52,842 nt of DNA. It comes from an uncultured Gammaproteobacteria bacterium (GTDB taxonomy: Bacteria; Patescibacteriota; Microgenomatia; Daviesbacterales; UBA10151). The stretch covers positions 1 to 52,842 of the forward strand of contig CAYRCR010000005.1 in the NCBI GenBank assembly GCA_964422835.1, read 5' to 3'. Both the position numbers and the translations under genes were made by a program. Shown here in pieces: positions 6,527 to 32,557 of this stretch. The number at the start of each line of letters is the position of its first letter. Position 1 is the stretch's first letter. Under the pieces are notes generated by a model that was given only the letters and a program-made list of their open reading frames with translations, ran no database searches and was not told where the DNA came from.

Positions 6527-7141
6527 TTAAAAACGCCTGATTACACCCACACATTTCCCCTGAATTTTTACATCCGTAGCATAAATTGGATCCATAGCCG
6601 CATTGGCAGGTTCCAACCTGATCCGGTTATGTTCCCGGAAAAACCTCTTTAAAGTTGCCAGGCCGTTTTCCAGAAGTGCCACTACAATTTCTCCGTCATC
6701 AGCAATTGTCTGTTCTTCAATTACTACATAATCACCGTCCAATATCCCATCCTCAATCATCGAGTCTCCTTTAACTTGTAAAACATAGGAACGCTTTTTG
6801 CCGGTAATCATGGAAGCAGGAATATTTATAGAGGCATCAGGGTCAGTATAGGTCATAATCGGGGAACCGGCTGCAATAAAACCCAGCACCGGCAGTTCAA
6901 TACCTTTTACTGTATCAGCAATTTTATTATCAAGGATTTCAAGGCCTCTAACAGCCCCGTCAAATTTTCTAATCACTCCTTTTTGCACCAAAGCCTGTAC
7001 ATGCTCATGGACAGTAGCCAAAGACGAAACACCGATGCTTTCGGCAATTTCACCCAAGGTGGGTGAATAGCCATATTTATCAATGTACTGCTTAATAAAA
7101 TCCAATATTTGTCTTTGCCTTCTATAAAGTATCACCGGCAT
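6527..7141 (-). CDS. lexA: SOS repressor LexA
   Basis: wHTH (RQRQILDFI...SPTLGEI), Ala-Gly cleavage site IAAGSP, VKGDSM catalytic Ser, ATLKRF Lys; start at ATG 7141. Confidence 0.95.
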   Translation of the reverse strand: MPVILYRRQRQILDFIKQYIDKYGYSPTLGEIAESIGVSSLATVHEHVQALVQKGVIRKFDGAVRGLEILDNKIADTVKGIELPVLGFIAAGSPIMTYTDPDASINIPASMITGKKRSYVLQVKGDSMIEDGILDGDYVVIEEQTIADDGEIVVALLENGLATLKRFFREHNRIRLEPANAAMDPIYATDVKIQGKCVGVIRRF

Positions 7142-7142
7142 T

Positions 7143-7192
7143 TTCGTATTTCCTTTGCATATACCATACCAAAGACTACCCGAAGGTGTCAA
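7143..7192 (-). promoter_or_regulatory. lexA promoter with candidate direct-repeat SOS boxes
   Basis: Minus strand TTGACA (7192-7187), 18 bp, TATGGT; TTCGG-N6-TTTGG in the spacer (7184-7169); second TTCG-N7-TTTG on + strand at 7143-7157. Confidence 0.6.
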
Positions 7193-7284
7193 GTGGGTCA
7201 AAATATATCACTTTGGAAATATCTTCCAGAATTCTTACATTTTTTTTATAGGATTTATATATTAAAAATGTAAACTCTCTTTCA

Positions 7285-10200
7285 ATGATAAATAAAATCA
7301 AAAGATTTTTGCTTCCCGGAATAGCATTATTCAGCTTGTTGGTTAATGTATTGCTTCCCCTGGCAATTCCATACAACGTCATTGCACAGGAAGTAACACA
7401 AACTGCTGAAGCGGTTGAAACACCTGCTCCGGAGGAAACTCCGGTTCCGATAGAAGAAACAACTCCCACTCCTGCTACTGAAGAAGTTATCCCAACTTCC
7501 ATACCCGAAACTTCCACCCCCGATGTGGAACTTTTAGAGGAGGCAACTCCCAGTGCCACCCTTTCGCCCACTCATGCTCCAACCCCGCCAGAGGCGGGGC
7601 AAGATCCTGTTGTAGAACAACCCACATACAATAATGTAGTTGTAAACGAAGAATATAAAGCCCCGCAAAATGATAAAGTCAAAGTCAAATTTAATATTTT
7701 ACCTGAAGGATCCGGCAGTTTAACAATTAAAGAAGTAAAACTTTCCCCGGAACAAATTGCTGCTACAGGGGCATTATCCGATACAGCTTATGACATAACT
7801 TCATCAATGTCTGACGGGACCTTCCAATATGACCTGACTTTACCTTTGCCACCTGCTGCCCAAAACCAGGAAGTAGATGTCAAATCAGCAGAAAATACTG
7901 ATTTATCAGATGCCACAAAAGTAACAGAACCGGAAGAAAAAACCGCGGATACTATTACAATTCTCGGCTTAAACCACTTTACTGTTTTCGTTGTCACTAC
8001 ACCTTCGCCTGACACAACCCAGAGAATATTAATTAATGAAATTGCGCCGGCTGCCGCAGCAGAATGGGTGGAACTTTTCAATAATGGTTCTGCTTCTGTA
8101 AATTTGGCTGCCGGCACCGGTTGGGTAATCAGAAATTCAGCCGGAAACTCCCAATCGCTTTCTGCCCTGGGTACTATTGCTCCTGCCGGAAGGGCAGTAT
8201 TTAATGCGCCTCCTGCCTGGCTTTCGGATGTTGCTCCTGAAACAGTTACTATTTTAAATGAACTGGGTGCGACAATTGACACTGTTACTGTTTCTTTAAC
8301 AGCCCCGGGATTTGCCGTTGACCATTATCCCCTGGCAAGTGAGTCGGTGGGAAGAAAAACAGATGGTGTTGCCGAATGGATGCTTTTCACAACTCCTACA
8401 AAAGGAACTGCTAATATAGTACCTGTCGCTCCGGGGGGCGGTATTGTCGAAGTCGGTCCAATTGCCCCTGACGGCGGCCTTATAGCAGGTTTCCCTGTCT
8501 GGTACAAAGACTCCAATGGTTTGGCTTTGGACTTAATGGAAGCGGCTGATGGTTTCGGAATCTCTGACCCTGTTGATCCTGCCAATCCTTTCTCGGAGCA
8601 AATCGGCTTTAATGCCGAAGGCTTCTGGTGGTCAGCGGAAGCCAGTATTGACCGTCCGATAGGTACACGCACCACACTAATCCTAGCTCTCGAAGCCGCG
8701 TTTGCCGGAGAAGCGGCAGTTGACGGGGAACAATCAGTGCAAAACAGGTTGAGGTACAGAATTGACGGATTAGTACCCGGTGAAACCTATACCATAACTC
8801 ACCCGTTTGGCAGTGTAGATGAAATTGCTGACGGCGCCGGAGTGATTAACGTAACCAGTGACATCGGATGCTTCGCTGACGGTTTTTCTACCTGCAATCA
8901 GGCAGCCCTTCCCAACTTTTCTTCAGCGCTTGCCGGACAGGTAGGGCCATACTTAACCTGGACTACATTTAATACCAATCCTGCCTTGACTGATCCTGCA
9001 TTGGTTAATGCTGCAAATCCCGGCAGAAGGTATGTCGGAAATCCTACCATTGACCATGCTGTGACAGGCAGTCCAACCGGCAATGATTTCTTCCGTGTCG
9101 AAGGTTTAAATGTTGGTGGAGCAGGAATTAATGTTATCGAAACAAACCTTTTCTCTGTCAGCGGAAGGTTGGCAGATGCAAATGCTCCTGTTATCACCCT
9201 TTTTGGAGCAAACCCTGTCAATGCTATCCAAGGCTCAATATACACCGATGCCAGCGCAACAGCTTTGGATGATCTTGGTGGTAATTTAACCGGCAGCATT
9301 GTTGTCACCGGTTTACCTGTTGATACATCAGCTCTTGGAGCAAAAATAGTTACCTATACTGTAACCGACAGCGTAGGACGGACAACAGTTGCAACCAGAA
9401 CAGTTAATGTGGTGGCAGCCGGAGGAATAGATACAATAGTGCCGGTAATTACAGTGACCGGAGCAAATCCTGCTAGCGTCACCCAGGGCAACCCATATAT
9501 TGACCTTGGGGCAACTGCTTTGGACGATACAGATGGAGATATCACAGCCAATATTGTCACTGTAAATCCGGTCAATACTGCTGTAATTGGACCTTATACG
9601 GTTGCTTATAATGTGTCTGATGCTGCAGGGAACCCGGCAACACAGGCTACCAGAATTGTAAATGTGGTAGCGGATACAATTGCCCCGGTAATTACAATCC
9701 TCGGTAATAATCCCGCAAATGTACTGACAGGAGCTGCCTATACTGACGCCGGAGCAACAGCCACAGATAATGTGGATGGGAACTTAACTGCCAATATTGT
9801 CACTGTTAACCCTGTTAATACGGCAGTCGCAGGCACCTATACTGTCACTTTCAACGTGTCTGACGCTGCAGGTAATCCTGCAATTGAGGCAACAAGAACA
9901 GTTAATGTAGCAGACACTTTGCCTGCTGGTTTGGTTGAAACCGGCCCTGTTGGAGCAGACACAGGTTTCCCTGTCTGGTACAAAGACTCCAATGGTTTGG
10001 CTTTGGACTTAATGGAAGCGGCTGATGGTTTCGGAATCTCTGACCCTGTTGATCCTGCCAATCCTTTCTCGGAGCAAATCGGCTTTAATGCCGAAGGCTT
10101 CTGGTGGTCAGCGGAAGCCAGTATTGACCGTCCGATAGGTACACGCACCACACTAATCCTAGCTCTCGAAGCCGCGTTTGCCGGAGAAGCGGCAGTTGAC

Positions 10201-12915
10201 GGGGAACAATCAGTGCAAAACAGGTTGAGGTACAGAATTGACGGATTAGTACCCGGTGAAACCTATACCATAACTCACCCGTTTGGCAGTGTAGATGAAA
10301 TTGCTGACGGCGCCGGAGTGATTAACGTAACCAGTGACATCGGATGCTTCGCTGACGGTTTTTCTACCTGCAATCAGGCAGCCCTTCCCAACTTTTCTTC
10401 AGCGCTTGCCGGACAGGTAGGGCCATACTTAACCTGGACTACATTTAATACCAATCCCGCCTTAACTGATGCTCAACTTTCTAATCCTGCAAATCCCGGC
10501 AGAAGGTATGTCGGTAATCCTGCCATTGACCATGCTGTAACAGGCAGCCCGACCGGACAAAACTCATTCTCTGTTACAGGACCCGGACTATCTAACTTTA
10601 CAACTAATCTATTCGGGGTCTCCGGAAGACTAGCTGATACAACCGGACCTGTAATTACTATAATCGGCTTAAATCCTGTTGAAGTTGCCCAAAACGCAGT
10701 TTATATTGACGCAGGCACAACTGCTTTGGATGACTTTGACGGTATAGTGGTTGTTACAACCACAGGACTTCCGGTTGATACAGCGATTGCCGGACCAAAA
10801 ACAGTCACATATACCGCAACCGACAGGTCTGGAAATACAACTACAGCAACAAGAACAGTCAACATAGCCGGAATTGATACTACTGCTCCGGTAATTACCA
10901 TCCTCGGTGTAAACCCTGTGGATGTAATTGTCGGTACAACTTACATTGATGCAGGAGCCACAGCCACTGATAATGTTGATCCGGCAGTAATAGTTAATTC
11001 AGTAAGCATAGTTGATACAAGTGTAATTGGAGTTTATACAGTAACTTATACTGCAACCGATGCGGCTGGAAACGCAGCAACACCAGTTATAAGAATAGTT
11101 AATGTGGTAGCTGTTCCTCCGGTTGATATAACAGCTCCAAACCTGTTGAGCTTCTCTTCAACCACGGCTGATGGAACCTATGGTACCGGAGCAGAAGTGA
11201 ATATCACTGCCAATTTCAATGAAGCTTTAGCAGCGGGAAGCACTGTCGCAGTAACTTTGGACAACGGTGTACCTGTAGAGCTCGTAGCCTTAAGTCTAAC
11301 TTCGGTTTCTGGAACTTATATGGTTGGACCTTTGGGTAGTGGGGAGAATTCTCCGGATTTGACAGTAGCCTCCATTAATTCCATGAATGTGACGGACATT
11401 GGCGGCAACCTGCAAGCCTCAACCGTACTTCCGGCCTCAAATATTGCCAATACCAGCGCTATTGTGATTGATACTACCGTACCACCACTACCTCCTGCCG
11501 CAACAGCTGCTATTTCCGGGCAGGTTTTCAATGATATTGATGCAGACCGTTTTAAAGATGCAATTGAACCTGTTCTTCCTGGTTGGACAGTGTATTTGGA
11601 TGCAAACAACAACAGAACTATGGATATAGGAGAAGTATCCGTCATTAGCAATATTCTGGGTGCATATCAATTTCCAGATCTTATTCCCGGAACATATATT
11701 GTTAATGAAGTTGTGCAATTAAACTGGGCAATCAGGTTACCGGGAGGAAACGGATACACCCAAACAGTTGCGGCAGGGGATAATATAACAGGAAAAGATT
11801 TTGGAAACATTGTCACCCAGACGATTGGTGGCCAGAGTCAGGGAGGATTTGCCACTACAACTGGAACAAATCTCACATCATCAATCGTTTCGCTGGGAGA
11901 TTCCATTATAAATATACCTTCAAATGGCGGTACCAGTAAAGTAACAATTCCGGCAGATACCGTAATTACTGCCAGCACTGGTGAAATCTTTGACGCGACC
12001 ACTCTGGCAGCTTCTGACCCTGCAGGGGAAATATTATCAGGACTGGGATCAGGGGTTGTTGTCAAAGGTAAACTGCAGTGGGGAGTACCTAATTTAGGCT
12101 TAGTATTTTCCACTCCCATTACTTTGGAAATATTTGTGGGTGAAGCTCTTAACGGCCAGACAATTAGCATACTTCGCTCGGTGGACGGTACAACTAATTG
12201 GACAAGTGACGGTATTGTTGCCCCTGCCAAATGCACAGTTACTTCAGGAATCTGTTCTTTCCAGGCTACCAAAGCATCATATTATGTGGCAGCAGAAATA
12301 CCCACCACTTCAAGTTCCAGCTCTAACTCATCCAGTTCCTCTAGCTCCGGTGGTGACGGATCTTCAACCGGGGCTCCTGTCTGCGGTGATACCAAACCGG
12401 CAAGTGCACCAATATTGTCAGTTGCCTCAATGGGTGGAAACGAAGTAACACTATCATGGACAAAGGCTTCTGATCCGGTAACCTACTACCTGGTGGCATA
12501 TGGAACAAACTCCGGCAATATGCAATTTGGCAACCCAAATGTGGGAGGCAAAGATACAGCCTCATTTTCTGTCAAAGGCCTCTCCGGCGGGCAAACTTAC
12601 TTCTTCCAAGTCAGAGCCGGGAATAATTGCATGCCGGGTGACTTCTCCAATGAAGTATCAGCCACACCCGGAGGCGAAGTTATAACCGGCTCGGCAGAAG
12701 GATTTACAGAGGGAGTATTGGGCGAAGAAACACAAGGTACTGAAACTGAAGGAGAAGTGGAAAGAGTGGAAAGTGCATTAGGTACAGCCACTGAACTTCC
12801 GGGAGCAGAAAAAACTGTATCCGCTACTTCAAATATGCTGCGGGTTATTACCCCCTTACTGGCGCTCCTGGCTCTCGTCGGGGGAGCATATGTTTACCGC
12901 CGCCGTGCGGTATAA
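7285..12915 (+). CDS. giant secreted, membrane-anchored multidomain surface protein (1876 aa)
   Basis: Signal peptide; P/T/E linker; lamin-tail-like domain (ILINEI...EWVELFN); two copies of an uncharacterised GFPVWYKD domain; five DUF5011/Ig-like repeats (APVIT.G.NP...YTDAGATA.D); SdrD-B-like domain; FN3; EGVLG; C-terminal TM plus RRR. Confidence 0.88.
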   Translation: MINKIKRFLLPGIALFSLLVNVLLPLAIPYNVIAQEVTQTAEAVETPAPEETPVPIEETTPTPATEEVIPTSIPETSTPDVELLEEATPSATLSPTHAPTPPEAGQDPVVEQPTYNNVVVNEEYKAPQNDKVKVKFNILPEGSGSLTIKEVKLSPEQIAATGALSDTAYDITSSMSDGTFQYDLTLPLPPAAQNQEVDVKSAENTDLSDATKVTEPEEKTADTITILGLNHFTVFVVTTPSPDTTQRILINEIAPAAAAEWVELFNNGSASVNLAAGTGWVIRNSAGNSQSLSALGTIAPAGRAVFNAPPAWLSDVAPETVTILNELGATIDTVTVSLTAPGFAVDHYPLASESVGRKTDGVAEWMLFTTPTKGTANIVPVAPGGGIVEVGPIAPDGGLIAGFPVWYKDSNGLALDLMEAADGFGISDPVDPANPFSEQIGFNAEGFWWSAEASIDRPIGTRTTLILALEAAFAGEAAVDGEQSVQNRLRYRIDGLVPGETYTITHPFGSVDEIADGAGVINVTSDIGCFADGFSTCNQAALPNFSSALAGQVGPYLTWTTFNTNPALTDPALVNAANPGRRYVGNPTIDHAVTGSPTGNDFFRVEGLNVGGAGINVIETNLFSVSGRLADANAPVITLFGANPVNAIQGSIYTDASATALDDLGGNLTGSIVVTGLPVDTSALGAKIVTYTVTDSVGRTTVATRTVNVVAAGGIDTIVPVITVTGANPASVTQGNPYIDLGATALDDTDGDITANIVTVNPVNTAVIGPYTVAYNVSDAAGNPATQATRIVNVVADTIAPVITILGNNPANVLTGAAYTDAGATATDNVDGNLTANIVTVNPVNTAVAGTYTVTFNVSDAAGNPAIEATRTVNVADTLPAGLVETGPVGADTGFPVWYKDSNGLALDLMEAADGFGISDPVDPANPFSEQIGFNAEGFWWSAEASIDRPIGTRTTLILALEAAFAGEAAVDGEQSVQNRLRYRIDGLVPGETYTITHPFGSVDEIADGAGVINVTSDIGCFADGFSTCNQAALPNFSSALAGQVGPYLTWTTFNTNPALTDAQLSNPANPGRRYVGNPAIDHAVTGSPTGQNSFSVTGPGLSNFTTNLFGVSGRLADTTGPVITIIGLNPVEVAQNAVYIDAGTTALDDFDGIVVVTTTGLPVDTAIAGPKTVTYTATDRSGNTTTATRTVNIAGIDTTAPVITILGVNPVDVIVGTTYIDAGATATDNVDPAVIVNSVSIVDTSVIGVYTVTYTATDAAGNAATPVIRIVNVVAVPPVDITAPNLLSFSSTTADGTYGTGAEVNITANFNEALAAGSTVAVTLDNGVPVELVALSLTSVSGTYMVGPLGSGENSPDLTVASINSMNVTDIGGNLQASTVLPASNIANTSAIVIDTTVPPLPPAATAAISGQVFNDIDADRFKDAIEPVLPGWTVYLDANNNRTMDIGEVSVISNILGAYQFPDLIPGTYIVNEVVQLNWAIRLPGGNGYTQTVAAGDNITGKDFGNIVTQTIGGQSQGGFATTTGTNLTSSIVSLGDSIINIPSNGGTSKVTIPADTVITASTGEIFDATTLAASDPAGEILSGLGSGVVVKGKLQWGVPNLGLVFSTPITLEIFVGEALNGQTISILRSVDGTTNWTSDGIVAPAKCTVTSGICSFQATKASYYVAAEIPTTSSSSSNSSSSSSSGGDGSSTGAPVCGDTKPASAPILSVASMGGNEVTLSWTKASDPVTYYLVAYGTNSGNMQFGNPNVGGKDTASFSVKGLSGGQTYFFQVRAGNNCMPGDFSNEVSATPGGEVITGSAEGFTEGVLGEETQGTETEGEVERVESALGTATELPGAEKTVSATSNMLRVITPLLALLALVGGAYVYRRRAV
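8486..10457 (+). repeat. identical 496-bp intragenic direct repeat (8486-8981 and 9962-10457)
   Basis: Base-by-base reading shows no mismatch; offset 1476 bp (492 codons); flanks homologous but diverged. Confidence 0.9.
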
Positions 12916-12952
12916 TTTGACAATCTCATAATTTTAGAGTAAAGTCAAAATA

Positions 12953-14146
12953 ATGTTAATCCGGTCCTTTAAATTAGCCATTATAGCTGTTTTATTTGTT
13001 GCCCTCTTCCTGCCGGTAACTGCAGTGTCTGCTGTTTCATCTCCCGCACTCTCAAAAAGAATTTTGGTTAAATTTTCCTCCAAGCCTGAAAAACCGGCAA
13101 TTGTTGAGAGAATCCGCGCCAGGGAAATTTCGGAAATTCCCCGGATTGATATATCTGTCTTAGAAGTTAAAGACATTGCAGAAGCAATCAGAAGCTTAAG
13201 AAACGAAAAAATAGATTTTATGGAAGTTGATGCTGTTGCCACTACTTTAACCAATGACACTTTATACTCCAATCAGTGGGCCTTACCAAAAATTTCCTGG
13301 GATAAGTTAGATACCGGAGCCGGTGTATATAATCCAACTGAAGCCTCAACCAGGATCGCGGTAGTGGATACGGGAGTAGATTACAACCATCCGGACCTAA
13401 CCGGTAAAGTCGATACCGGACAGGATTGGGATTTTGTCAATAATGATGATGATGCCTTGGATGATAATTTGCACGGAACCCATGTAGCAGGTATTGCTGC
13501 TGCCAGCACCAACAACAGCACGGGAGTGGCCGGTGTGTCTATTAATACCAGCACCATCTTACCGGTTAAGGTACTTAATCAAGCTGGCTCCGGTTACTAC
13601 TCGTGGGTGGCTGCCGGAATTATTTATGCCGCTGATCACGGGGCAAAGGTAATCAATTTAAGTCTTGGAGGCAATGTTAAATCTACTACTTTGGAAAATG
13701 CGGTCAATTATGCCTGGGGTAAAGGGGCAGTGGTGGTAGCTGCTGCAGGCAACAGTAATAATTCTTCTAAAACTTATCCGGGGGCATATTCCAATGCCAT
13801 GGCTGTTTGGGCTTCTGATCAAAATGACAATAAAGCCTCCTTTTCCAGCTACGGGGGTTGGGTTGATATAGGAGCGCCGGGGGTCAGTATACTATCTACC
13901 ATTCCTTTGGGTAAAGATACCAAAGATGGCAACCAGGATGGATATTATCTGGCAAGCGGTACCAGTATGGCCACTCCCGGTGTAGCGGGTTTGGCAGGGC
14001 TCCTTTTTTCACAGCATCCTGACTGGTCTGCTCAAACAGTCAGAAGTAAAATTGAATCAACAGCCGATCCGGTATCTTCCCGGTTATTTAAAAGGGGAAA
14101 CTTAGGCAAGGGCAGGATCAACGTTTTCAAAGCTTTAACTCAATAA
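12953..14146 (+). CDS. secreted S8 subtilisin/thermitase-like serine protease
   Basis: Signal peptide, propeptide, catalytic triad motifs VVDTG, HGTHVAG, SGTSMA. Confidence 0.95.
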   Translation: MLIRSFKLAIIAVLFVALFLPVTAVSAVSSPALSKRILVKFSSKPEKPAIVERIRAREISEIPRIDISVLEVKDIAEAIRSLRNEKIDFMEVDAVATTLTNDTLYSNQWALPKISWDKLDTGAGVYNPTEASTRIAVVDTGVDYNHPDLTGKVDTGQDWDFVNNDDDALDDNLHGTHVAGIAAASTNNSTGVAGVSINTSTILPVKVLNQAGSGYYSWVAAGIIYAADHGAKVINLSLGGNVKSTTLENAVNYAWGKGAVVVAAAGNSNNSSKTYPGAYSNAMAVWASDQNDNKASFSSYGGWVDIGAPGVSILSTIPLGKDTKDGNQDGYYLASGTSMATPGVAGLAGLLFSQHPDWSAQTVRSKIESTADPVSSRLFKRGNLGKGRINVFKALTQ

Positions 14147-14162
14147 TTACTTATTTGCTTTG

Positions 14163-14588
14163 ATGAGAAAAATCTTTTTAGCGCTTCCTGTTTTATTCTT
14201 GTTTTTTCCGGGGTTTGCCTGGGCAAGCACAGCCAGATCTTCGGTCCAAACCAATGTCCAATCAGGCAATGCGGAAGTTTACCAGTCTGTTGAAGTAACT
14301 GTTAACGGCAAGACCATTAAAAAAGAGAGCAGGGAACCCGGAAAGCTGGAACTCAAAATGGAGGAAATCCAGATGGAGAAAATTCAGGCTTCACCTTCAG
14401 GACAGACCGTCACGCCAACCTCTGCTCCTGCGCTTAAACTGTCCTTTGCAGCATCTGTCAGAGAATTACTTTCCGGCTTGACTTCCCGGCTTATAACTGC
14501 TATAAGGATAAATACCCGCCCACTGCCTCTTGTATATGAGTCTATACTCAACCAAACAATTGACAGAAGATACCCTGGGAGAGATTAA
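14163..14588 (+). CDS. hypothetical secreted protein
   Basis: Signal peptide ending AWA; VEVTVNGKTIKKES segment; 3' end overlaps the next gene. Confidence 0.6.
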   Translation: MRKIFLALPVLFLFFPGFAWASTARSSVQTNVQSGNAEVYQSVEVTVNGKTIKKESREPGKLELKMEEIQMEKIQASPSGQTVTPTSAPALKLSFAASVRELLSGLTSRLITAIRINTRPLPLVYESILNQTIDRRYPGRD

Positions 14589-14733
14589 GGAAGCGCTTTA
14601 CCAACTCCAATACGGCAGTGTCGAGATTTTTGTCCAGGACGGTCTGGTCACTCAAATTACCAAAAGAATTATCAAAAAAACTATCCCTGACAAAAGTAAA
14701 AAGGGCCTTGACAATAGTATAAGAAATAGGTAA
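14536..14733 (+). CDS. DUF2292/YezD-family small protein
   Basis: EIKEALYQLQYGSVEIFVQDGLVTQI matches the family pattern; TTGACT-17-TATAAG upstream at 14478-14506. Confidence 0.8.
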   Translation: MSLYSTKQLTEDTLGEIKEALYQLQYGSVEIFVQDGLVTQITKRIIKKTIPDKSKKGLDNSIRNR

Positions 14734-14753
14734 AAGTAAATATTACAGGTTTT

Positions 14754-14868
14754 GCTGACCGCCCCCGGAAGCATCCCATATTTTTACATCGGGATGTTTA
14801 AAAAATCAAATTTTATTTCTCTATATCGAAAACCATTCTTAAGCGCTTTAAAGACTTAAGAGGGTTTT
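14754..14868 (+). promoter_or_regulatory. structured leader between the DUF2292 gene and the repeat-protein gene
   Basis: GC-rich GCTGACCGCCCCCGGAAGC element, then hairpins gcatccc/gggatgt and aaaacc..cttaag/cttaag..ggtttt; TTGACA at 14708. Confidence 0.45.
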
Positions 14869-14932
14869 GTGAAAATCGGCTAATCCTAGGATAACCTTTT
14901 TTTGCATCTTCAAAAGGAAGGGGGTGAAATAA

Positions 14933-15499
14933 ATGAATTTAAAAAAATTAATAGTAACAGGCAGCGCAGTAGCTTTAATGCTTAGCAGTGCAGCCCCGGC
15001 TTTTGCTGGGAGTCCTGATAATGTGGCTATCATCAAAAATAACAACACATCAGCATCTGCTAATAGTGGTATGAACACTCAAGATAATTTGGGAGGTAAT
15101 ACTGTGGTAGCTGGTAAGGGAAGCGGTAATATAGCCTCTGTTGACTCCAGTGGTACAAGATCTATGACTACCGGAAGTGCCAAGGCTAAAGCCAAATCCG
15201 TGGTTGTGGCTAATGTCCAGGTTGGTTGCGGTTGCGAGGAAGACAATGGCACTAATGGTCATGGGCAAGGTGGCAATGATAATCTGGCAGTAGTAAAACG
15301 CAACAACACATCTGCAGATGCTAACAGCGGTGTAAACTTTCAAGACAATTATGAGAATAATACCGTTAAAGCTGGCAAGGGAAGTGGTAATAACGCTTCA
15401 GTTGACGAGAGTGGTTCTCGAACCATGAACACAGGCGATGCTAAAGCTAAAGCCAAGAGTTGGGTAGTAGTTAACTCAAACGTTAGCTCGCCGTTTTAG
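14933..15499 (+). CDS. small secreted Asn/Gly/Ser-rich two-repeat protein (candidate fibre subunit)
   Basis: Strong RBS (AAGGAAGGGGGTG), signal peptide ending AFA, two ~69-aa repeats (ANSGxN...TG(S/D)AKAKAKS) joined by GCGC. Confidence 0.85.
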   Translation: MNLKKLIVTGSAVALMLSSAAPAFAGSPDNVAIIKNNNTSASANSGMNTQDNLGGNTVVAGKGSGNIASVDSSGTRSMTTGSAKAKAKSVVVANVQVGCGCEEDNGTNGHGQGGNDNLAVVKRNNTSADANSGVNFQDNYENNTVKAGKGSGNNASVDESGSRTMNTGDAKAKAKSWVVVNSNVSSPF

Positions 15500-15520
15500 G
15501 ATTTCCGTTTAGACGGAATG

Positions 15521-15568
15521 GTTTTAAGGAGAGGGTTGGAAACTAGGGTCCTCCCTCTCCAAAAGACC
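15521..15568 (+). terminator. strong intergenic stem-loop (mRNA stabiliser or partial terminator)
   Basis: ggtttt..ggagaggg / ccctctcc..aagacc inverted repeat right after the repeat-protein stop; no long T tract. Confidence 0.5.
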
Positions 15569-15581
15569 AAAGGATATATTT

Positions 15582-18257
15582 ATGAAGAAAATTATTAATT
15601 TTAAAATTTTCAAGCAAGCAGTCACTATTTGGGTGATTTTTTTGCTTGCTTTTAATCCGGTTATTGCTCCTTTGGCTTTTGCAGAAGATGAAATTCCAGC
15701 TGTTACTACTATCACTACAGGGGATGCCCAATCATAATCTGATGTTTCCGTTATTGCCAACTCCAATACAAATATTGTTCCCGGAACAGTCACACCCGGC
15801 AGCGGCTGCAACGGGCCTGAACTTAATATTGATTGTCCCGGTACTGATTCAATCAGCAACCAAAACCAGGCAGATACCCAAAGCTCCAACACATCTTCGG
15901 CCCAGACGGGCCAAAATTCCTCTTCCGAAAATGACGGTAACGTAAATTTAAGTACCGGCGAGGCAACAGCTTCAGCTGAAACCACCAACCAAATTAACAC
16001 CAACATCATGGAACTGGAAAATGAGGCATCGGAAAGCGCCGAAATTGCGGAAGCCACCCCTTCCGCGGAGTTTGCTATCACAAATGTAAACGATGCCACT
16101 TCGCAAAACGGGATGAGCGTTATTGCAGAAACAGGAGAAAATCAGGCCAATAATAACCGGGGGGATGTGGTTATTGATACCGGCAACACCCTGGCTGTTG
16201 CTAATATCTTCAATCTTATTAATACCAATATTGTAGGGTCTAACTTTGATCTGTTATTTATAAATTTGACTGAGGTGCAAAATGACATAAACCTTTTTCA
16301 GGTCTGGAAAGATACAACCGGCGGTGATCCGGCAGACCAGTTGCAGTTTACAGGCGGAGAACCGCAAAATTCTTTATATCTCCTAATTGAAAATTCCAAC
16401 CGGGCAGAAATTAATAATTATCTTACTGTCAGCGCTGTTTCAGGAAAAAATGAGGCGAATGACAACAATAATGTAAATTTAAATAGCGGAAATGCCATAT
16501 CCTTAGCCAATATTACTAATATAGCCAACTTTAATCTGATAGGATCTAAATTTCTTTTTGCAACAATTAATATCTTGGGCAGCTTTGAAGGTAATTTGAT
16601 TTTACCTCCCAGGGAATATTTTATGTCACAGAACTCATCCCAAAACTCAATATCGGCAGCCAGTCAAAACAGGGCTTATGTAGAAGGTTCTATAGAAACT
16701 ATTGCAGATAGCGGAGGCAACGAGTTAAATGAAAATGCAGGCGACTCAAACATCCAAACAGGGGATGCTGAAGCAATTTCCCATAACCTGTCTCTTTTAA
16801 ATTTGAATATAGCGCAAAATGACTGGTTTAATGTCCGGGTAAACCATTTAGGACAAAGACAGGGAGATGTCTTTGGCTGGTCTGATCCTGAAGCAAAAGA
16901 AGAGTCAGAGGATATTATGACATTTTCTACTGAAACTACCGGTACCGACGGGGCAGTAAACAGCCAGAATACCCGGGTAAACAATTCCAATGAAGTAAAA
17001 ATTAATAACCAAATTTCTATTCAAGCCATCTCCGGCCAAAACAAGGCAGACAGAAATAGCATGACAAGTGTAGTTACAGGAAAGGCAAAGGCTTTAGCAA
17101 ATTTATTTAATTTAGCAAATCTTAATATTTTAGGCAGCAATTTATTCCTTGGAGTAGTAAATATTCTGGGAGACTGGCAGGGCAATACAATTTTTGCTTA
17201 TCCCGACGTGACGGTAGCAATAAACGGTCCGGCCCATGACGTGACTCCAGGAGAGGAAATAAATTATAACATAGATGTTGAAAACATCGGTTATGATGAC
17301 GCGCACGATATTGCAGTTTTATTTGAATTACCCAAAGGAACAAGTTACATTTCTGATACTTCAGGCCAAGTAACAGAGCAATCGGGAAATAATCTTAAAT
17401 GGTCTATTGACACATTGACAGCTAACGGGAGTCTATCATTTGATTTGAAATTGAAAATTGATCCGAATTTAAATTACGAAGACCTGCTTACTTTCTGGGA
17501 TAGATTAATTCCCAAGGCATATGCCCTGGAAGAAGGAGTGCGGGATGAAATCACCGCCAAAGTTGAAGTTTCAACAACAGATAAACAATCGGATAATAAC
17601 AATGACACATCGTCAATTGCCACTGTTATTTTATTCCCGGCAACATCCAGTGATATCTCTGATGACCAAAGCTCTTCCGCAGAAGCTGCATCTACCACAA
17701 TTGAGATTAATGCTAAAAATAATGTCAATGATTTTATTTACCTGGGAGATATTATTACCTTTGATTTGGAAGTTAAAAATACCGGAGGAGAAAAAGCAGG
17801 AAATGTTACTGTATTTCAGGATATTTACAATGGGCATCCGGAGTCAACAGGTACTGTGGAATTTCCCATTGGGGATATTGATCCGGGCAAAACAGCCAAG
17901 GTAAATTTCGCAATTCAGATAACAGATTTAATTCCCGGCTCTTATCATACTTTAACATACGCAACCGGGGATAATATTTCATCAAACGAAGCAGTCACTT
18001 ATTTTAAAGTTAAATTAAATAATATTAGTTTAATTTCCGAAGTCCAGGCTCAAGAGATAGACCAGAATGAAAGTACTGCCGGTGAAGTAAAAGGGGCAGA
18101 TAAGTGTCCGGCAATAATAATGAGAAGGGAATGGTGGCCTTATGCACTGGCAGCATTATTTGGAACCCTTTGGTTTTTAGAAGTCAGCAGGAGAAAACAC
18201 TGGAATCTGTCATTGACAAAACTAACTAAAAAAGTTTATAATCCGCCGGCAGGGTAG
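15582..18257 (+). pseudogene. large SGxN/TGDA-repeat plus DUF11 membrane-anchored surface protein with one in-frame TAA (15735-15737)
   Basis: ATG 15582 gives signal peptide MKKII...LAFA, then ITTGDAQS*SDVSV in the same frame as ORF 16008-18257; 5-6 Asn-rich repeats, two DUF11-like domains (GEEINYNIDVENIG; GDIITFDLEVKNTG), GEVKG, TM, RRK. Confidence 0.85.
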
Positions 18258-18264
18258 ATAAGCG

Positions 18265-19506
18265 TTGAATATACTTACTAAGTTATTGTTCACTCTATTT
18301 ATTTTATTTTTTTCTTTAGGCGTTTTAAGCCCGCATGCAAATGTTCGGGCCAATGTTTTTGGCAATAATGATTATCAGTTGCGCTGCCCATTCCCTTCTC
18401 CTACACCGGTTCCAACTCAAATTCCTATTCCTTCTCCTACTCCCACTGCTCCCATCCCCACACCAACACCTGTTCCCAGTCCAATTCCATCCCCAACACC
18501 TTCTCCATTTCCGGCACTGACACCAACACCAACTCTTCCACCCACACCTACCCCCAGTCCTACTCCTGCAGTAACTCCAGAACCAACTTCAGCACCGGTT
18601 GCAGTTTCCGGCGGTCAGGGAGGACCATCAGGCGGTAGAGATAGCGGTGGAGAAAGCGCCCCGGCTCCATGCGGAGCAAGCAATCCCGGAGCAACCACAC
18701 TTATTTCCGCCACACCGAAAAGCGCCACAAACGTTGAGTTAAAGTGGAGTAAAAACCCCAATGCTACCGATTATAATGTCAGCTACGGTCCGGGATCCGG
18801 AAATTACCTGTATGGTCTGTCCGGTACCGGTAATACTGATACAGTCACTATTTCAGAGCTTGACTCAAATCAACGCTATTGTTTTGTTGTTTCTCCGGTT
18901 AATGATTGCGCTCCGGGTCAAATTTCAAATGAAATATGTATCGGCGAAGCAAAGAAGGTTGTGTTGGGTGTTTTTACCGGAGGAGGTGAAGTGCTGGGAC
19001 TGTCCAGTACTGCCTCCGGCGACGATGCAACAGATTCTACTCCGGATACTACATTACCGGATGAGAAAATTATTATTGATCCGGCAGATTTTACCAACCC
19101 GGTAAAGGTGTTGGGCGTACCTACCCGGATTACAATTCCGGCTTTGGATATTGATTTGCCGGTAGCGGAGGCAAAAGTGGAAAATGATCTTTGGCAGACT
19201 TTTGCGGGTTTTGCCGCCCACGGAGTAGGTAGCGCCAATCCCGGTGAAAGATCTAATGTGGTTATCTTTGCCCATAACCGGGCCGGATTATTTGGTAATT
19301 TGAAATATGCCCAAGTTGGCAGCGAGATTACGGTTTTGAGCAACAACAGGAAATTCAGGTATCAGGTATCAGAAATCAAAGAGATAACTCCGGATCAGAC
19401 AAGCACGATAGGTCCAACTCAAGAGGAAACATTAACACTTTACACCTGCAGCGGGGAAAATGATAAAAAAAGATTGATAGTTATAGCCAGAAATATTGGC
19501 GCTTGA
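18265..19506 (+). CDS. sortase fused to Pro/Thr linker and FN3 module
   Basis: N-terminal signal/TM, (PT)n linker, FN3, then sortase motifs [18 protein letters not shown] (His), LTLYTC (Cys), KRLIV (Arg); TTG start after TTGACA..TATAAT at 18213-18242. Confidence 0.9.
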
Positions 19507-19547
19507 CAATTATTAGTTTTGATATTAAATTTTAGACATTTATTAAA

Positions 19548-19576
19548 CCATGGCCCAAGAGGGCCGTGTTTTTTTA
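19548..19576 (+). terminator. intrinsic terminator-like hairpin
   Basis: catggccc-aaga-gggccgtg followed by T7; lies downstream of sortase and of a TTGACA at 19503. Confidence 0.6.
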
Positions 19577-19601
19577 TTAAATTAAGGAGGTGATAATTTG
19601 T

Positions 19602-19793
19602 ATGGATAAAGAAATAAAACTTCCATCATGGCTCACTGGAGAAGCGGCAACAGGATCAAGGACAGCAAATGAATCAGAAGGACCTGTTTGGGTTCCTGCA
19701 GATAAAGTTTTTGAAGGAATGGATGAAAGAAGGCTAGGAAGAAGAGAGCGCCATGGGCTCGCATTCCTTATGTCAAAGCGTCCGGGAGTATAA
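19602..19793 (+). CDS. small hypothetical protein (63 aa)
   Basis: Strong AAGGAGGTG Shine-Dalgarno before ATG 19602; ends 8 nt before uvrB. Confidence 0.6.
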
Positions 19794-19801
19794 CAGTTGT
19801 T

Positions 19802-21787
19802 ATGCCTAAATTCCAAATTGTTTCGGAGTTCGAACCGACCGGAGACCAGCCACAAGCAGTTAGCATGCTTGTGGCAGGCCTTAAGCAAAATAAAAAGCAT
19901 CAGGTACTACTCGGGGTGACAGGATCTGGTAAAACATTTACCATAGCTAATGTCATCCAAAAAGTCCAAAAGCCCACTCTGGTTATTTCCCACAATAAAA
20001 CTTTAGCAGGGCAGCTGGCCCAGGAATTTAAATCTTTATTTCCCAAAAACGCAGTTGAATATTTTGTGTCTTATTATGATTATTACCAACCGGAAGCTTA
20101 TATTCCCGGGTCTGATACTTATATTGAAAAAGAAACACAAATTAATGAAGAGATAGAGAAACTTCGCCTTTCTGCCACAGCCTCACTTTTAACCCGTAAA
20201 GATGTCATTGTTGTGGCTTCGGTTTCGGCAATTTACAATTTAGGCTCCCCTCAAGAATACGGCCAGGCTATTTTGGAACTTAGAGCTGGAATGAAAACCA
20301 CATTCCAACAGGTCCTTAAAATCCTAACCAAAATCTATTATGAAAGAAATGATATTGATTTTAAAAGAGGAACTTTCCGGGTCAGGGGGGATACGATTGA
20401 TATTTTCCCGGCATATTTGGATTCAGGTTACAGGCTGCAGTTTTTAGGGGACAGGATAGAAAAAGTAAAAAAACTGGATGTTTTAACAGGACACACAGAA
20501 GAGTTGGACGGGGCCCAGGTAATATTTCCTGCCAAGCATTATATTACGCCTGAACAGCGGATGCTGCCTGCTTTGGAACAAATAGAAAGTGATTTAAGAT
20601 TAAGGATTAATGATTTAAGAAAACAAAACAAGTTAGTAGAAGCGCAAAGAATAGAACAAAAAACAAATTATGACCTTGAAATGATTAAACAGTTTGGATA
20701 CTGCAATGGCATTGAAAATTATTCCCGCTATTTTGATGGCAGGAATCCCGGTGACCCGCCTTTTACCCTGCTGCATTACTTTCCTAAGGACTTTCTATTG
20801 GTTATTGATGAGTCGCATATGACAATCCCCCAAATCAGGGGTATGTATAACGGCGACAGGTCAAGAAAAGAGACTTTAATTGATTTTGGCTTCAGGCTGC
20901 CTTCTGCTTTGGATAACAGGCCTCTTAAATTTGATGAGTTCAGCCGAAAAATTAATCAGGTAATTTATGCATCAGCCACACCTGAAGGGTATGAGCTATC
21001 CCTGGCCCAAAGTGAACACCCCGGAGGTGGAGGCGTAGTGGAACAATTAATCAGGCCAACCGGTTTACTTGATCCGGAAATTATTATCCGTCCCATTGAA
21101 GGGCAGATAGAAGATTTGATCAAGGAGATAGAATCAAGAGTCAAAAGTTACGAGAGGACACTGGTCACAACTTTAACTAAAAGAATGGCCGAGGATTTGG
21201 CTGATTATTTACATGAAAAAGGCATAAAAGTGCATTATTTGCATTCTGATGTAAAAACTTTGGAAAGGTCTGATATTTTACATTCCTTGAGGATGGGTGA
21301 ATATGACGTGATTGTGGGAATAAATTTACTCCGTGAAGGCCTGGATTTACCGGAAGTTTCACTGGTGGCAATTTTGGATGCGGACAAGGAAGGGTTCCTT
21401 CGTTCCCGGACTTCACTGATTCAGACTATGGGCAGAGCAGCCAGACATATCAATGGCAAAGTAATTATGTATGCAGATACCGTCACAGGCTCGATGAAAC
21501 ATGCTATTGAAGAAGTGGAAAGGCGAAGGGAATTTCAGGCAAATTATAATAAAAAACACGGTATTATTCCTAAGGGGATTATCAAACCTTTACGGGAAAG
21601 GTTAATTGAGAAAATCGAAGAGGAAGAGGGAATTAAGGAAGGTGAATTGAAGCTGGAAGATATTCCCGAAAATGACCGAAAAAAGATTATCAAACATTTG
21701 GAAGAACAAATGAAACTGGCAGCCGAAGCCCTGGATTTTGAAGAAGCAGCAAAACTAAGGGATCAAATTAATGAACTATCAGTATAA
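19802..21787 (+). CDS. uvrB: excinuclease ABC subunit B
   Basis: [31 protein letters not shown]-terminal UVR domain FEEAAKLRD. Confidence 0.98.
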
Positions 21788-23772: not shown

Positions 23773-26241
23773 ATGTTTGATTTTATAGTGAATAATTTGG
23801 ATTTAATAAAATTTTATATGCCGATTGGAGCGATCGGTCTTTTTCGTTGGGGACTTTGGAGTATAAAGAAACTGGTTGGCCTGGGGTATCACCCGACAAA
23901 AGAAGTAAAACACAACTCCAGCCTGTCTGTAATAACTGCAGTTTATAACGAGAGGCCTGATATATTCAAAAAAGCACTGAACAGTTGGGAAGGGGATGAA
24001 ATTATTGCTGTTATCGATCATCAGGATAAATCAAGCATTAAAGTTTTTAAGGAATTTTCCGACAACACCTACACCCAAACAAAACTAATTATAACTTTTG
24101 TGCCCGGCAAAAGGCCGTCACTGGCTATGGGAATAAAGGCTGCTAAAGGTGAAATTGTCGCTTTGGTTGATTCAGATACCATTTGGAAGCAGGACATTCT
24201 GGGCAGGGCGATTTCTCCTTTCACAGACCCAAAAGTGGGAGGAGTTGCTACCAGACAGGAAGTATATGAACCCAGTACCATCCAGGGACAACTATTTAAT
24301 ATCCAGCTTTCAAACCGTTATTTTAACGAATTCCCTTTTTTGGCAAAAACAGGTAACGTCTTAACCTGCCTGTCCGGCCGGACTGCATTCTACCGCCGCG
24401 AAGCAGTGATACCTGTGCTTGATGATATGGTTAATGAAAAATTTTTGGGAGTGCCCTGCATCAGTGGAGATGATAAGGCCTTAACCCGCCTGGTGCAGGA
24501 AAAAGGCTGGAAAACTAAATTTATGCAAAATGTTGTAGTTGCAACGCCACAAGCTCCGACTTTACTGACATTTTTTAAGCAGCAGCTCCGCTGGCTCCGT
24601 AACAGCTGGAGGTCCGATCTTTTGACACTTGCAAGCCCCTGGGTCTGGAGGAGGGAAAAAATCCTTGCCCTTTATATGATCGATCGCTTTCTACAGCCTT
24701 TTATTATGTTTTTAGGCCCCATTTATTTTGCAATCTCCATTTATTTGGGACATTGGACAGTTTCTATTATTTTAATTATCTGGTGGCTTTTAAGCCGTAG
24801 CATAAAAATCCTGCCGCACTTAGAACAGCACACCTCCGATTTACTCATAATACCCGTTTATGTCATAACAACCTACATTACGGCGCTTATTAAGATATAT
24901 GCCCTGCTGACTTTAAATGAGCAGGGGTGGATTACCCGCTGGGATAGCACCCGGCTGCAAAAAACCGCCCTTATATTTATCTTTATGTTTATGTTCCAAA
25001 CTTCAGGTATAAGTTCTGTCAAGGCACAGGAGAAGCCTGACATTACTTTTGACTCTGCGACTAATACAATCGAAGTTAAGGGAGAAGGCACAACAGTTAA
25101 CCTGACTGCTATTTCAAATGTGATTAATGATAAAAATGTATTGGAAAGAACAGGAGTTTATGAATGGATATTGAAAGTTAATTTAAAAATTTTTGAAGAT
25201 GTGACGCTTGAACTTTATGGGTTTCAGGGCGGCGACGTCAACTGGCTCAAAATGAGATCCGACCCGGCAGGGTATGCAGCTATAGAGTCCTCAAACGGCA
25301 ATATCAGTATTAAAAATGTCAAAATTACTTCCTGGGATGGGCAAAAAAACTCATTTGACACAGACTTTTTAGACGGCAGCGGCCGGGCCTATATTTCCGC
25401 TAAAAACAGGAGCAGTAAATTTGTAAACCGGATGGATATTGTCAGTAGTGAGATTGCCTATTTGGGCTTTTTTGATGAAACGGCTTACGGCATATCATGG
25501 AAAGTAATTTCCGAACCCGGCAAAGGGGACACAGGGACCTTAGGAAAAGGCATTACGGGAAAAGTTGAAAATAGCAAATTTCACCATAACTATTACGGCA
25601 TGTATTTATGGGGTGCAGGCGGGTTGGTAATAAGGAATAATGAAATCTATGAAAATTACCGTTATGGCTTTGACGCCCATACCCAAACTATTAACACAAT
25701 CATGGAAGATAATTTTTCCCATGATAACGGCTGGCATGGCATAATTTTCGCCGACAGGTGTACGGGCAATACCATCCGCCGTAACAGGTCAATAAATAAC
25801 AAAGGTCATGGGATTATGCTGCATAAACGCTCCGATAATAATACTATCGAGGATAATACCGTATCGGGGAATGATGACGGCATTCCTCTTTTTGAATCTT
25901 CATCCAATATTATTAAGAACAACCGAATCAGCGGCAATAACGTTGGAGTAAGAGTTTACGGCAGGACTCTTCCTTCTGCCAATAACATTTTTGAAAATAA
26001 TACAATTTCCGATAGCAAAAAGTATGGTATATATCTTTACGATGCAGCTTCGGAAAATACATTCCGCAACAACCAAATTCAAAATAGCGGCGACAGGGAA
26101 GTATATGAGCCAAATGTCTCAAATGATGCTGTGGAAAATACCAATAAACCCAATAAATGGATAATTGCCTCAACTCTTTTTGGAGCGGTGTTTCTGCTGG
26201 CAGTTATAAGCAGGATACGGGCTTATCTTAATGCACGATAA
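23773..26241 (+). CDS. GT2 processive glycosyltransferase fused to a right-handed beta-helix (AlgG/NosD-like) domain
   Basis: GKR, DSD, CLSGRTAFYR, GDDKALT, QQLRW motifs with TMs; then PbH1 repeats including YGFDAH and HGIIFA; C-terminal TM. Confidence 0.85.
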   Translation: MFDFIVNNLDLIKFYMPIGAIGLFRWGLWSIKKLVGLGYHPTKEVKHNSSLSVITAVYNERPDIFKKALNSWEGDEIIAVIDHQDKSSIKVFKEFSDNTYTQTKLIITFVPGKRPSLAMGIKAAKGEIVALVDSDTIWKQDILGRAISPFTDPKVGGVATRQEVYEPSTIQGQLFNIQLSNRYFNEFPFLAKTGNVLTCLSGRTAFYRREAVIPVLDDMVNEKFLGVPCISGDDKALTRLVQEKGWKTKFMQNVVVATPQAPTLLTFFKQQLRWLRNSWRSDLLTLASPWVWRREKILALYMIDRFLQPFIMFLGPIYFAISIYLGHWTVSIILIIWWLLSRSIKILPHLEQHTSDLLIIPVYVITTYITALIKIYALLTLNEQGWITRWDSTRLQKTALIFIFMFMFQTSGISSVKAQEKPDITFDSATNTIEVKGEGTTVNLTAISNVINDKNVLERTGVYEWILKVNLKIFEDVTLELYGFQGGDVNWLKMRSDPAGYAAIESSNGNISIKNVKITSWDGQKNSFDTDFLDGSGRAYISAKNRSSKFVNRMDIVSSEIAYLGFFDETAYGISWKVISEPGKGDTGTLGKGITGKVENSKFHHNYYGMYLWGAGGLVIRNNEIYENYRYGFDAHTQTINTIMEDNFSHDNGWHGIIFADRCTGNTIRRNRSINNKGHGIMLHKRSDNNTIEDNTVSGNDDGIPLFESSSNIIKNNRISGNNVGVRVYGRTLPSANNIFENNTISDSKKYGIYLYDAASENTFRNNQIQNSGDREVYEPNVSNDAVENTNKPNKWIIASTLFGAVFLLAVISRIRAYLNAR

Positions 26242-28001: not shown

Positions 28002-28031
28002 TTGCGCAGTAGATTGCGCGATTATTGCGTG
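28002..28031 (+). repeat. TGCGCGATTATTGCGTG repeat, copy 2 (upstream of uvrA)
   Basis: ttgcgcagtaga-ttgcgcgatta-ttgcgtg; identical 17-mer to 26244-26260. Confidence 0.7.
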
Positions 28032-28112
28032 ATATATTTTCCAACCTTTAGGCTTCCTACCACTTTCAATTTCTTGCCAAATCTGGTAAAATTGTCTGTA
28101 TTTTCCGCCTTC

Positions 28113-31891: not shown

Positions 31892-32545
31892 TTATTCTTC
31901 AAAATCTATTGCCTGTCGCTTAATAATTCTTAAAGCCTTACTATAACCCACTTGATCTTCAACAAATTTATAATATTTTCCCAATGAAGGAAAAAAATTA
32001 AGAACTTGATTAACTGAAGATATTTTTTCATTACCGGTTAAAAAATCATAATATGAAGACCAATTATAAGAAAATAAATCATTTGTTAGACCTGCTACAA
32101 CTGGATTTAAATGTATGTAGCGGGAAGTGTGCTTAAGCTGTTCATCTGATTCCATCAGTACTGATTTAAATACTCCTTGGAAAAGTGCGCCCACCCGATT
32201 ATATTTGGTATTAAAGTATTTCGTATAACTGTTGAATAGTTGGCTCATAAAAATGGAGATACCATTTTCCTTTACTTGTTTTAACAGAAAATGAATATGA
32301 TTAGGCATTAAACAGTAACATAATATTTGTACTAATTTATTTTCAGGATTAGGTTTAAAAGAATTGAAATCTGATTTAGTAAATTTGGAAAAGCTAATTT
32401 TAGGTCCAGTATATTGATAATAATAAAGTGTTTTTAAAAATCTTTTATAATCCCGGGGTTGAGTAAAAATATCACGCTTTTCACTTCCTCGATTAAAGAG
32501 ATGATAATACTCTCCAATAACTAGTGGCGTAGCTCGTCCAGGCAT
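31892..32545 (-). mobile_element. REP-associated tyrosine (Y1 HUH, IS200-like) transposase
   Basis: YYHLFNRG, CLMPNHIHFLL (HUH), SRYIHLNP (catalytic Tyr), YNWSSY. Confidence 0.9.
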
Positions 32546-32557
32546 ATATTTATACAA

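Follow-up and report, generated by a model that had tools for sequence, protein, structure and literature searches.

What do seven co-oriented genes build at the surface of a tiny groundwater bacterium that belongs to a group whose surface construction and means of holding a host are mostly unknown? The genes in question, g1 to g7, occupy positions 7285-19506 on the plus strand of a DNA stretch of 52,842 nucleotides (nt), hereafter the window (assembly GCA_964422835.1, contig CAYRCR010000005.1), where they are flanked by lexA (minus strand, 6527-7201) and uvrB (19802-21787), and the genome that carries them (983,509 bp, 39 contigs, 99.67% complete) is placed in the class Microgenomatia of the Patescibacteria. 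Patescibacteria, the candidate phyla radiation (CPR), are described as a large share of bacterial diversity, with cultivated members that live attached to other microbes (PMC13278184, PMC11623550), and the first CPR-specific pilus was described in 2026 (PMC13278184). An earlier note, made from the sequence alone, had seen in this locus a sortase-linked assembly system for a surface fibre or adhesin. The seven genes and their common orientation are as that note had them, and the locus is best explained as a single instance of a conserved and undescribed cassette for the cell surface in this Patescibacteria class, centred on a small secreted and a large membrane-anchored protein that may assemble together at the cell surface. 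The genes and signals at its centre are these:

14530-14733, plus strand: g4, DUF2292 protein (PF10055; YezD/OscA-type) with no signal peptide (Pfam)
14916-14926, plus strand: Shine-Dalgarno sequence GGAAGGGGGTG, 6 nt before the ATG of g5 (read from the sequence)
14933-15499, plus strand: g5, small secreted two-repeat protein (P0001), 188 amino acids (aa) (translation, profiles)
15491-15569, plus strand: two stem-loops between g5 and g6 (folding)
15582-18257, plus strand: g6, large membrane-anchored protein of 891 codons, interrupted here by a TAA (Pfam, AlphaFold2 (AF2), profiles)
15735-15737, plus strand: in-frame TAA at codon 52 of g6 (read from the sequence)

The small protein g5 consists of a signal peptide ending in PAFA and two ~70-aa modules linked by a conserved Cys-x-Cys, and it has no anchor. 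A profile of g5 and four close relatives, searched against 1.84 billion proteins, gathered 132 cluster representatives, nearly all 140-200 aa long, at E<=1e-3 (53 of them at <=1e-10). The family alignment, A2, holds P0001 and 79 of these 132 matches, 53 short, partial or multi-stretch matches being left out, and in it the signal peptide is conserved, the first strand of the module reads N.A.V.N...A.ANTG.N.Q, the last reads TG.A.A.A....N.., and the modules are joined through Cys-x(1-2)-Cys. Compared with Pfam, the 80 members yielded no credible family (18 families were each matched by a single member, at E 0.004-0.087); a sequence search of the PDB with the family returned only noise, with no relative among solved structures. 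An N-terminal signal is present in 48 of 51 family open reading frames (ORFs) shorter than 260 aa, a C-terminal hydrophobic stretch in just one of the 51, itself a 51-aa fragment, and g5 terminates directly after its last beta-strand with no hydrophobic tail; a sorting signal, as borne by the substrates of sortases, is therefore missing from the small protein. The strong ribosome-binding site and the downstream stem-loop that had been pointed out for g5 are both real, the latter folding at -34.7 kcal/mol (z -3.97), which none of 200 shuffles equalled. Together they fit a highly expressed subunit, and the stem-loops may stop part of the transcription or stabilise the transcript. An Rfam scan of 12900-19800 returned a single chance-level match, and matches in the protein atlas were confined to unnamed CPR clusters.

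Read across all of its 891 codons, the stop being taken up below, g6 comprises a signal peptide, ~5.5 beta-hairpin modules (~40-540), two DUF11/CLIPPER Ig-like domains (541-812; DUF11 match 2.8e-13, in two stretches), the sequence EVKG and a transmembrane (TM) helix at 852-883. Its 81 homologues at E<=1e-3 range from 564 to 1396 aa, mostly ~820-1050 aa, and those with names carry only "hypothetical" or "uncharacterized repeat protein". The proposal that the small and the large protein contain the same repeat stands at the level of profiles and not at that of a narrow model: a repeat hidden Markov model (HMM) built from the five closest small proteins gave no significant score on g6, whereas the 80-sequence small-family profile does match g6 (E 2.2e-6), in an N-terminal stretch that spans the stop codon, and hhalign of the small family against A3, an alignment of 53 g6 homologues, gave a probability of 97.6% (E 2.8e-12). 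In this profile-profile comparison the two small repeats align to consecutive modules 3-4 of the large family. By such profile evidence the small secreted and the large anchored proteins are homologous. AF2 modelled the intact large protein with a mean predicted local distance difference test (pLDDT) of 81.7 and a predicted template-modelling score (pTM) of 0.65, rendering residues ~40-540 as very long beta-hairpins arranged in five complete modules and half of a sixth, the strands being 20-27 residues long in blocks of pLDDT >90. The model was searched for similar folds as a whole, and the matches listed were taken up by the Ig-like part (540-812): residues 541-812 resemble a CLIPPER domain (9ifr; Z 13.3, sequence E 3.3e-4) and the pilin stalk domains of BcpA, SpaD and RrgB (Z ~11-12), and RbmA was also matched. 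As modelled, g6 has the layout of a fibrillar adhesin, with a distal long-hairpin repeat domain, two CLIPPER/DUF11 stalk domains and a TM anchor.

That these genes belong together is best seen in other genomes. Besides the window, 50 loci were fetched around matches, giving 51 loci in 49 genomes, and were annotated with Pfam and with local HMMs that rest on few seed sequences; the loci were picked by small-family or DUF2292 matches, and the adjacency counts describe carriers only. A large-family ORF lies <=700 nt downstream of the small gene, on the same strand, in 43 of the 47 loci with >=1 kb of downstream sequence, the exceptions being L027, L035, L072 and L073. The last two (genomes G553 and G511) have a stand-alone small-family gene of ~200 aa followed, 2-4 kb downstream, by a complete cassette in which DUF2292 precedes a mid-size and a large repeat gene and a sortase, an arrangement that points to additional copies of the secreted subunit. 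Sampled evenly across the phylum, 14 of 401 genomes contain the small family. The family of g4, DUF2292 (PF10055), is matched with 40.1 bits against a cut-off of 22 (E 2.7e-10), and translation of g4 probably begins at the ATG at 14536. Of 401 genomes of the class, 104 have DUF2292, almost always as a single match; this tally, the sortase tally given below (399/401) and the overlap table, with its 64 DUF2292-only genomes, include one genome flagged as unpublished, G452, which bears on nothing else here. In 17 of 40 loci DUF2292 is found no more than 2.5 kb upstream, and among the 40 genomes having both families it stands 0-2.5 kb upstream of the small gene, on the same strand, in 38. Fetching 20 further DUF2292 loci from genomes with no small-family match returned, in 18, DUF2292 followed by a repeat protein of 388-475 aa and then by a large-family protein of 720-826 aa, and in the other two a TasA/camelysin-like (Peptidase_M73) gene directly after DUF2292 (L088:6996-8099; L094:8000-8928); TasA-like M73 genes are also found near the cassette in 4 of the 51 loci. 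From these counts the core cassette is DUF2292, a secreted repeat protein of two or ~5 modules and an anchored repeat protein. DUF2292 is its most faithful partner, and the two M73 cases hint that in this class it accompanies secreted proteins of the fibre type in general.

Around this core stand accessory genes: on the upstream side g3 and an S8 peptidase, on the downstream side a sortase together with a substrate of its own. Of these, the S8 and sortase genes are facultative neighbours. In the window they and the remaining features are:

7285-12915, plus strand: g1, giant surface protein, 1876 aa (Pfam, translation)
12953-14146, plus strand: g2, secreted subtilase (S8), N-terminal prodomain of the fervidolysin type (Pfam)
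14160-14588, plus strand: g3, secreted protein of only 142 aa, signal peptide present (translation)
18265-19506, plus strand: g7, FN3-sortase fusion, 413 aa (Pfam, translation)
19549-19568, plus strand: terminator-like hairpin and T-run after the sortase gene (sequence), the likely end of the transcription unit

The product of g7 begins with a TM helix and a Pro-rich linker; its FN3 domain is separated by the degenerate remnant of a sorting signal from the sortase domain (PF04203, residues 289-409), which scores 80.5 bits against a cut-off of 26.6 (E 1.1e-22) and whose His, Cys and Arg motifs, intact as had been claimed, can be read in the translation as FAHN, TLYTC and VIAR. Against the sortase classes of NCBIfam only general sortase models pass, class C reaching 46 bits against a cut-off of 160 and classes D, E and F also staying below theirs. 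FN3 proteins homologous to the FN3 domains of g7 and g1 lie directly ahead of the sortase in L033, L043, L044, L046, L047 and L064, and such proteins end in VLGA[ST]T-L[AG]xTG, a hydrophobic stretch and a basic end. Other relatives have a third repeat paralogue, complete, ~310-415 aa long and bearing LPATG, LPVTG or LPLTG (L031, L034, L081, L084, L087, L089, L093), which the sortase gene directly follows in L031, L084, L087, L089 and L093; in L077 it directly follows a 189-aa paralogue with no canonical motif. Such signal-bearing proteins beside the sortase place the sortase link with a wall-anchored stalk protein or paralogue and not with the small protein, so that the idea that the sortase attaches the components of the locus is not supported for g5 and would apply to the FN3 protein or third paralogue of relatives. 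The "VLG" tail that the earlier note had pointed out looks like the upstream flank of the extended sorting signal VLGA[ST]T-LAxTG and not like an independent motif; the window keeps this flank only, as VLG in g1, VKG in g6 and VLG in g7. Read in this light, g7 is a predicted FN3 substrate fused to its own sortase. Other FN3-sortase fusions occur at L057:12750-13973, where LAATG is kept between the domains, and at L061:4761-6284, and the former could be self-processing; in most relatives the FN3 protein (the predicted substrate, with LAxTG) and the sortase are encoded by separate, often overlapping genes. Sortases as such are nearly universal in the class, 399 of 401 genomes having 1-6 matches (three in the genome studied here), and their presence alone is therefore not special; this is in keeping with a class Microgenomatia, since sortase is described as near ubiquitous in Microgenomates (PMC6744442). 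Random placement would bring a sortase to within 10 kb of the cassette in 1.85 of the 30 loci with full flanks, and the number observed is 19, a contrast whose significance is overstated by the kinship among the genomes.

Upstream, g1 comprises a signal peptide, an LTD domain, five Bact_surface_Ig-like domains, HYR, SdrD_B-like and FN3 domains, and a tail made up of "VLG", an acidic linker, a C-terminal TM helix and RRR; its FN3 domain and tail are 64% identical to those of a giant protein adjoining the cassette in L026. Within g1 a direct repeat (8486-9100 and 9962-10576, offset 1476 nt) is 100% identical over ~470 nt and then falls to 72-90%; it reflects a domain duplicated very recently or else an artefact of the assembly. 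The subtilase g2 matches Peptidase_S8 with 194.7 bits against a cut-off of 21.8 (E 2.8e-57), its catalytic motifs DTG, HGTH and GTSMA being visible in the translation. Across g1 and g2 (8000-14000) G+C content is 0.46-0.48, compared with 0.39-0.41 in the flanks. No Pfam family was matched by g3; jackhmmer homologues of it sit between S8 and DUF2292 or the small gene in L050, L051, L054, L063, L064 and L074, and at the equivalent position in two more loci, L077 and L083, making eight further loci in all.

How might such a set of proteins work? In the mechanism that we favour, the abundant small protein, once exported by Sec, would dock edge-to-edge on the hairpin sheet of the anchored large protein, and perhaps also on further small subunits, giving a capped or extended beta-sheet structure upon the stalk; a sortase-placed, wall-linked FN3 protein or third paralogue would tie the assembly to peptidoglycan, the S8 peptidase would trim prodomains or tails, and DUF2292 would serve in the cytoplasm in regulation or handling. 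The central claim, co-assembly of the secreted and anchored paralogues at the cell surface, we hold tentatively and put a little short of an even chance, with several observations weighing against it. The small family is widespread yet patchy, occurring in 71 of 401 genomes of the window's class and in 4 of 29 genomes of the window's own taxonomic family. The secreted partner varies between genomes from 2 modules (130-200 aa) to ~5 (390-475 aa), which is unusual for a uniform fibre subunit. AF2 models the small monomer poorly (pLDDT 64), and in fold searches that model matched only FapC (E 2.4), HET-s and HELLF (both Z 2.7), all too weakly to be of use. Only 11 of 38 loci have an S8 gene upstream at a distance of up to 7 kb and on the same strand; many loci have none, and many lack the sortase. 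The co-location in related genomes that had been expected is found for the small-large pair, and DUF2292, g3, S8 and a sortase do return there in the window's gene order, S8 and the sortase being facultative. The tails encoded in the window carry no LPXTG, and in this assembly the gene at 15582-18257, which had been taken as open, is broken, its ORF under table 11 spanning only 16008-18257. A complex prediction for the large ectodomain (36-545, with A3) and the mature small protein (26-188, with A2) scored 0.01 against a mark of 0.32, with no controls, and is evidence neither way. A more elaborate version of co-assembly would make the cassette a Patescibacteria-specific appendage, in which hairpin modules are stacked by sheet augmentation into a fibre or sheath on a membrane-anchored CLIPPER-stalk base, with secreted subunits of two to five modules, a sortase-placed wall tie and a cytoplasmic DUF2292 factor that also goes with TasA-like fibre genes. 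We consider this rather unlikely; if true, the appendage would be a second CPR-specific surface filament system beside the Pam pili, in lineages that are not known to have a cultured member.

Other explanations share part of this evidence. The proposal of the earlier note was more specific, with the small protein polymerizing on its anchored homologue; in that reading the small protein would be a curli- or chaplin-type subunit that homopolymerizes into long cross-beta, amyloid-like fibres, nucleated and held by the anchored large protein. The adjacency of a secreted small subunit and an anchored paralogue would suit such a fibre, as would repeats rich in N, Q, G, S, T and A with a conserved residue at every second position, a strong Shine-Dalgarno sequence and downstream hairpin befitting an abundant subunit, a weak CsgB score (21.2 bits against a cut-off of 165) and the low-confidence model of the small protein, which matches only amyloid and solenoid folds, all below significance. 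Every one of these amyloid similarities falls below threshold, however, the genome lacks Curlin_rpt, CsgG and the chaplin domain, many genomes have a multi-module secreted partner of 390-475 aa in place of a short subunit, and the high-confidence model of the large protein shows a monomeric, folded domain, which together leave this account unlikely. Just as unlikely is the view that these are independent surface proteins, co-transcribed and sharing a repeat by duplication, with no mutual assembly. Repeat-rich surface proteins are indeed numerous in CPR genomes, the neighbourhoods of the cassette also contain giant adhesins, LTD proteins and TasA-like genes, and the module number of the secreted partner varies; yet the secreted-then-anchored order in 43 of 47 loci, and again in 18 of 20 divergent loci, with DUF2292 upstream, is hard to explain without functional coupling.

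The broken anchor gene raises the further possibility that the cassette is here a non-functional remnant, a view to which the in-frame TAA at codon 52 and the patchy occurrence among close relatives lend some weight. Against it, the TAA is a single stop after which the frame stays open for 839 codons, all the other genes are intact, and a near-identical intact 891-aa protein with Glu at codon 52 is on record. The window stretch is present in 18 groundwater and soil DNA runs from 9 studies, with no RNA run listed for it; in the contigs of three other metagenome runs, from three studies, position 15735 is G (codon GAA), with all depth on G, and the run from which this DNA probably came shows contig breaks at 15698 and 15736, exactly around the stop. 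With GAA in the other runs, the TAA is a minority allele or an error and not recoding; recoding of TGA or TAA was considered and rejected, all other genes being open under table 11. A decaying locus is therefore very unlikely. Even less probable, to the point that we would give it hardly any weight, is a membrane-active or pore-forming device directed against a host cell, in which amphipathic hairpins insert into the host membrane in the manner of beta-barrel pore formers and the small protein adds hairpins to them. Patescibacteria are reported to be episymbionts (PMC11623550, PMC13622651), and hairpins with strands of 20-27 residues are indeed very long; the large protein, for its part, is anchored by a TM helix behind a stalk, its conserved Asn and small residues lie on one face with no clear lipid-facing pattern, and it had no fold or sequence match to pore formers, its N-terminal domain never having been searched alone. 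Of these possibilities, co-assembly of the secreted and anchored paralogues remains the one we favour.

Known systems offer parallels in logic for such co-assembly. In Streptomyces, the short secreted chaplins ChpD-H are accompanied by the long, sortase-anchored ChpA-C and by SrtE sortases, and the cassette likewise has short secreted and longer anchored paralogues of one repeat with a sortase involved, a likeness that extends in relatives to the third paralogue with LPATG, LPLTG or LPVTG directly before the sortase. It differs in its ~70-aa hairpin modules, in a main anchor that is a TM helix behind CLIPPER and not LAXTG (the TM tail of g6 in the window has neither LAXTG nor LPXTG), and in its DUF2292, g3 and S8 partners; the chaplin domain PF03777 had no match in the locus proteins or the genome. 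Curli pair an abundant secreted repeat subunit, CsgA, with a surface-held paralogue, CsgB, encoded beside it, and here too a secreted subunit lies beside a surface-held paralogue, with repeats rich in Asn, Gln and Gly. The Curlin repeat PF07012 had no match in g5, the 80 family members or the genome, nor CsgG (PF03783) any in the genome, and Patescibacteria are reported to have no Gram-negative envelope (PMC6744442). Chaplins and curli are the closest counterparts in logic, their defining domains being absent here.

With the sortase-assembled pili of Gram-positive bacteria the cassette shares a sortase in the locus and stalk domains, in g6, that resemble pilin domains. The CnaA/CnaB-type Ig-like feature of pilins is found in g6 only (in its two DUF11 domains), the small protein has no C-terminal sorting signal and the sortase stays below the class C cut-off, so the earlier judgement that the locus does not match known sortase pili was sound. 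It was also right about pilin motifs: an LPXTG-type sorting signal is found neither in the window nor in any other ORF of the genome, and no YPK motif was seen by eye in the translations of g5 and g6. DUF11/CLIPPER is described as the stalk domain of fibrillar adhesins (PMC12617251), and g6 shows all of their parts, namely signal peptide, distal domain, tandem DUF11/CLIPPER and anchor; it departs from them in its distal domain, an undescribed long-hairpin repeat, and in the dedicated secreted paralogue encoded just upstream. The Pam pili of CPR are built, according to their published description, from 38-55 kDa two-domain Ig-like pilins joined by donor-strand exchange, with TM-anchored PapD-like chaperones and PamR, an FN3-type protein with a C-terminal TM helix that is a proposed membrane tether (PMC13278184). 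The parallel lies in a CPR-specific operon for a surface filament, which the cassette may likewise be, and in an FN3-type protein with a C-terminal TM helix; the subunit here is ~17 kDa, made of two hairpin modules and different in secondary structure, and no chaperone-like gene was recognised in the locus with Pfam; as far as that description goes, the Pam pilus is a different system by subunit size and architecture. A search of the literature found no description of the repeat family or of sortase substrates in these bacteria, although the family tables of PMC6744442 might include these families. A further parallel lies in the TasA/TapA/SipW system. In Bacillus, it comprises a secreted fibre protein with an anchoring partner, an arrangement shared by the cassette, near which M73 genes occasionally lie; Peptidase_M73 (PF12389) had no match in g5 or g6, and no SipW-type signal peptidase was seen in the locus.

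Some further observations concern the surroundings of the cassette. The 200-nt spacer between the DUF2292 gene and the small gene contains, by eye, a palindrome-rich stretch (14838-14860, CTTAAG..AGCGCT..CTTAAG) that could be an operator site. Downstream of the locus uvrA and uvrC (28002-31049, 34484-35746) are interleaved with envelope genes, namely those for an 822-aa GT2 and NosD/beta-helix protein (23773-26241) and a 619-aa transglutaminase-like/DUF2207 protein (32624-34483); this part of the window also encodes a Fic protein (26284-27342) and an IS200-like Y1 transposase (31892-32557). In the related genome G032, GyrB (L033:3089-6349) contains an intein, Intein_splicing interrupting Toprim in a 1086-aa ORF.

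Given how little is known of surface building and host holding in Patescibacteria, the interest of the work lies in its defining a second conserved CPR cassette, composed of unannotated families in a fixed gene order and with a demonstrable sortase link. It provides handles in the form of three HMM-ready families, the variants of a sorting signal and a fused FN3-sortase, and it places DUF2292, for the first time in this group, in a consistent genomic setting.

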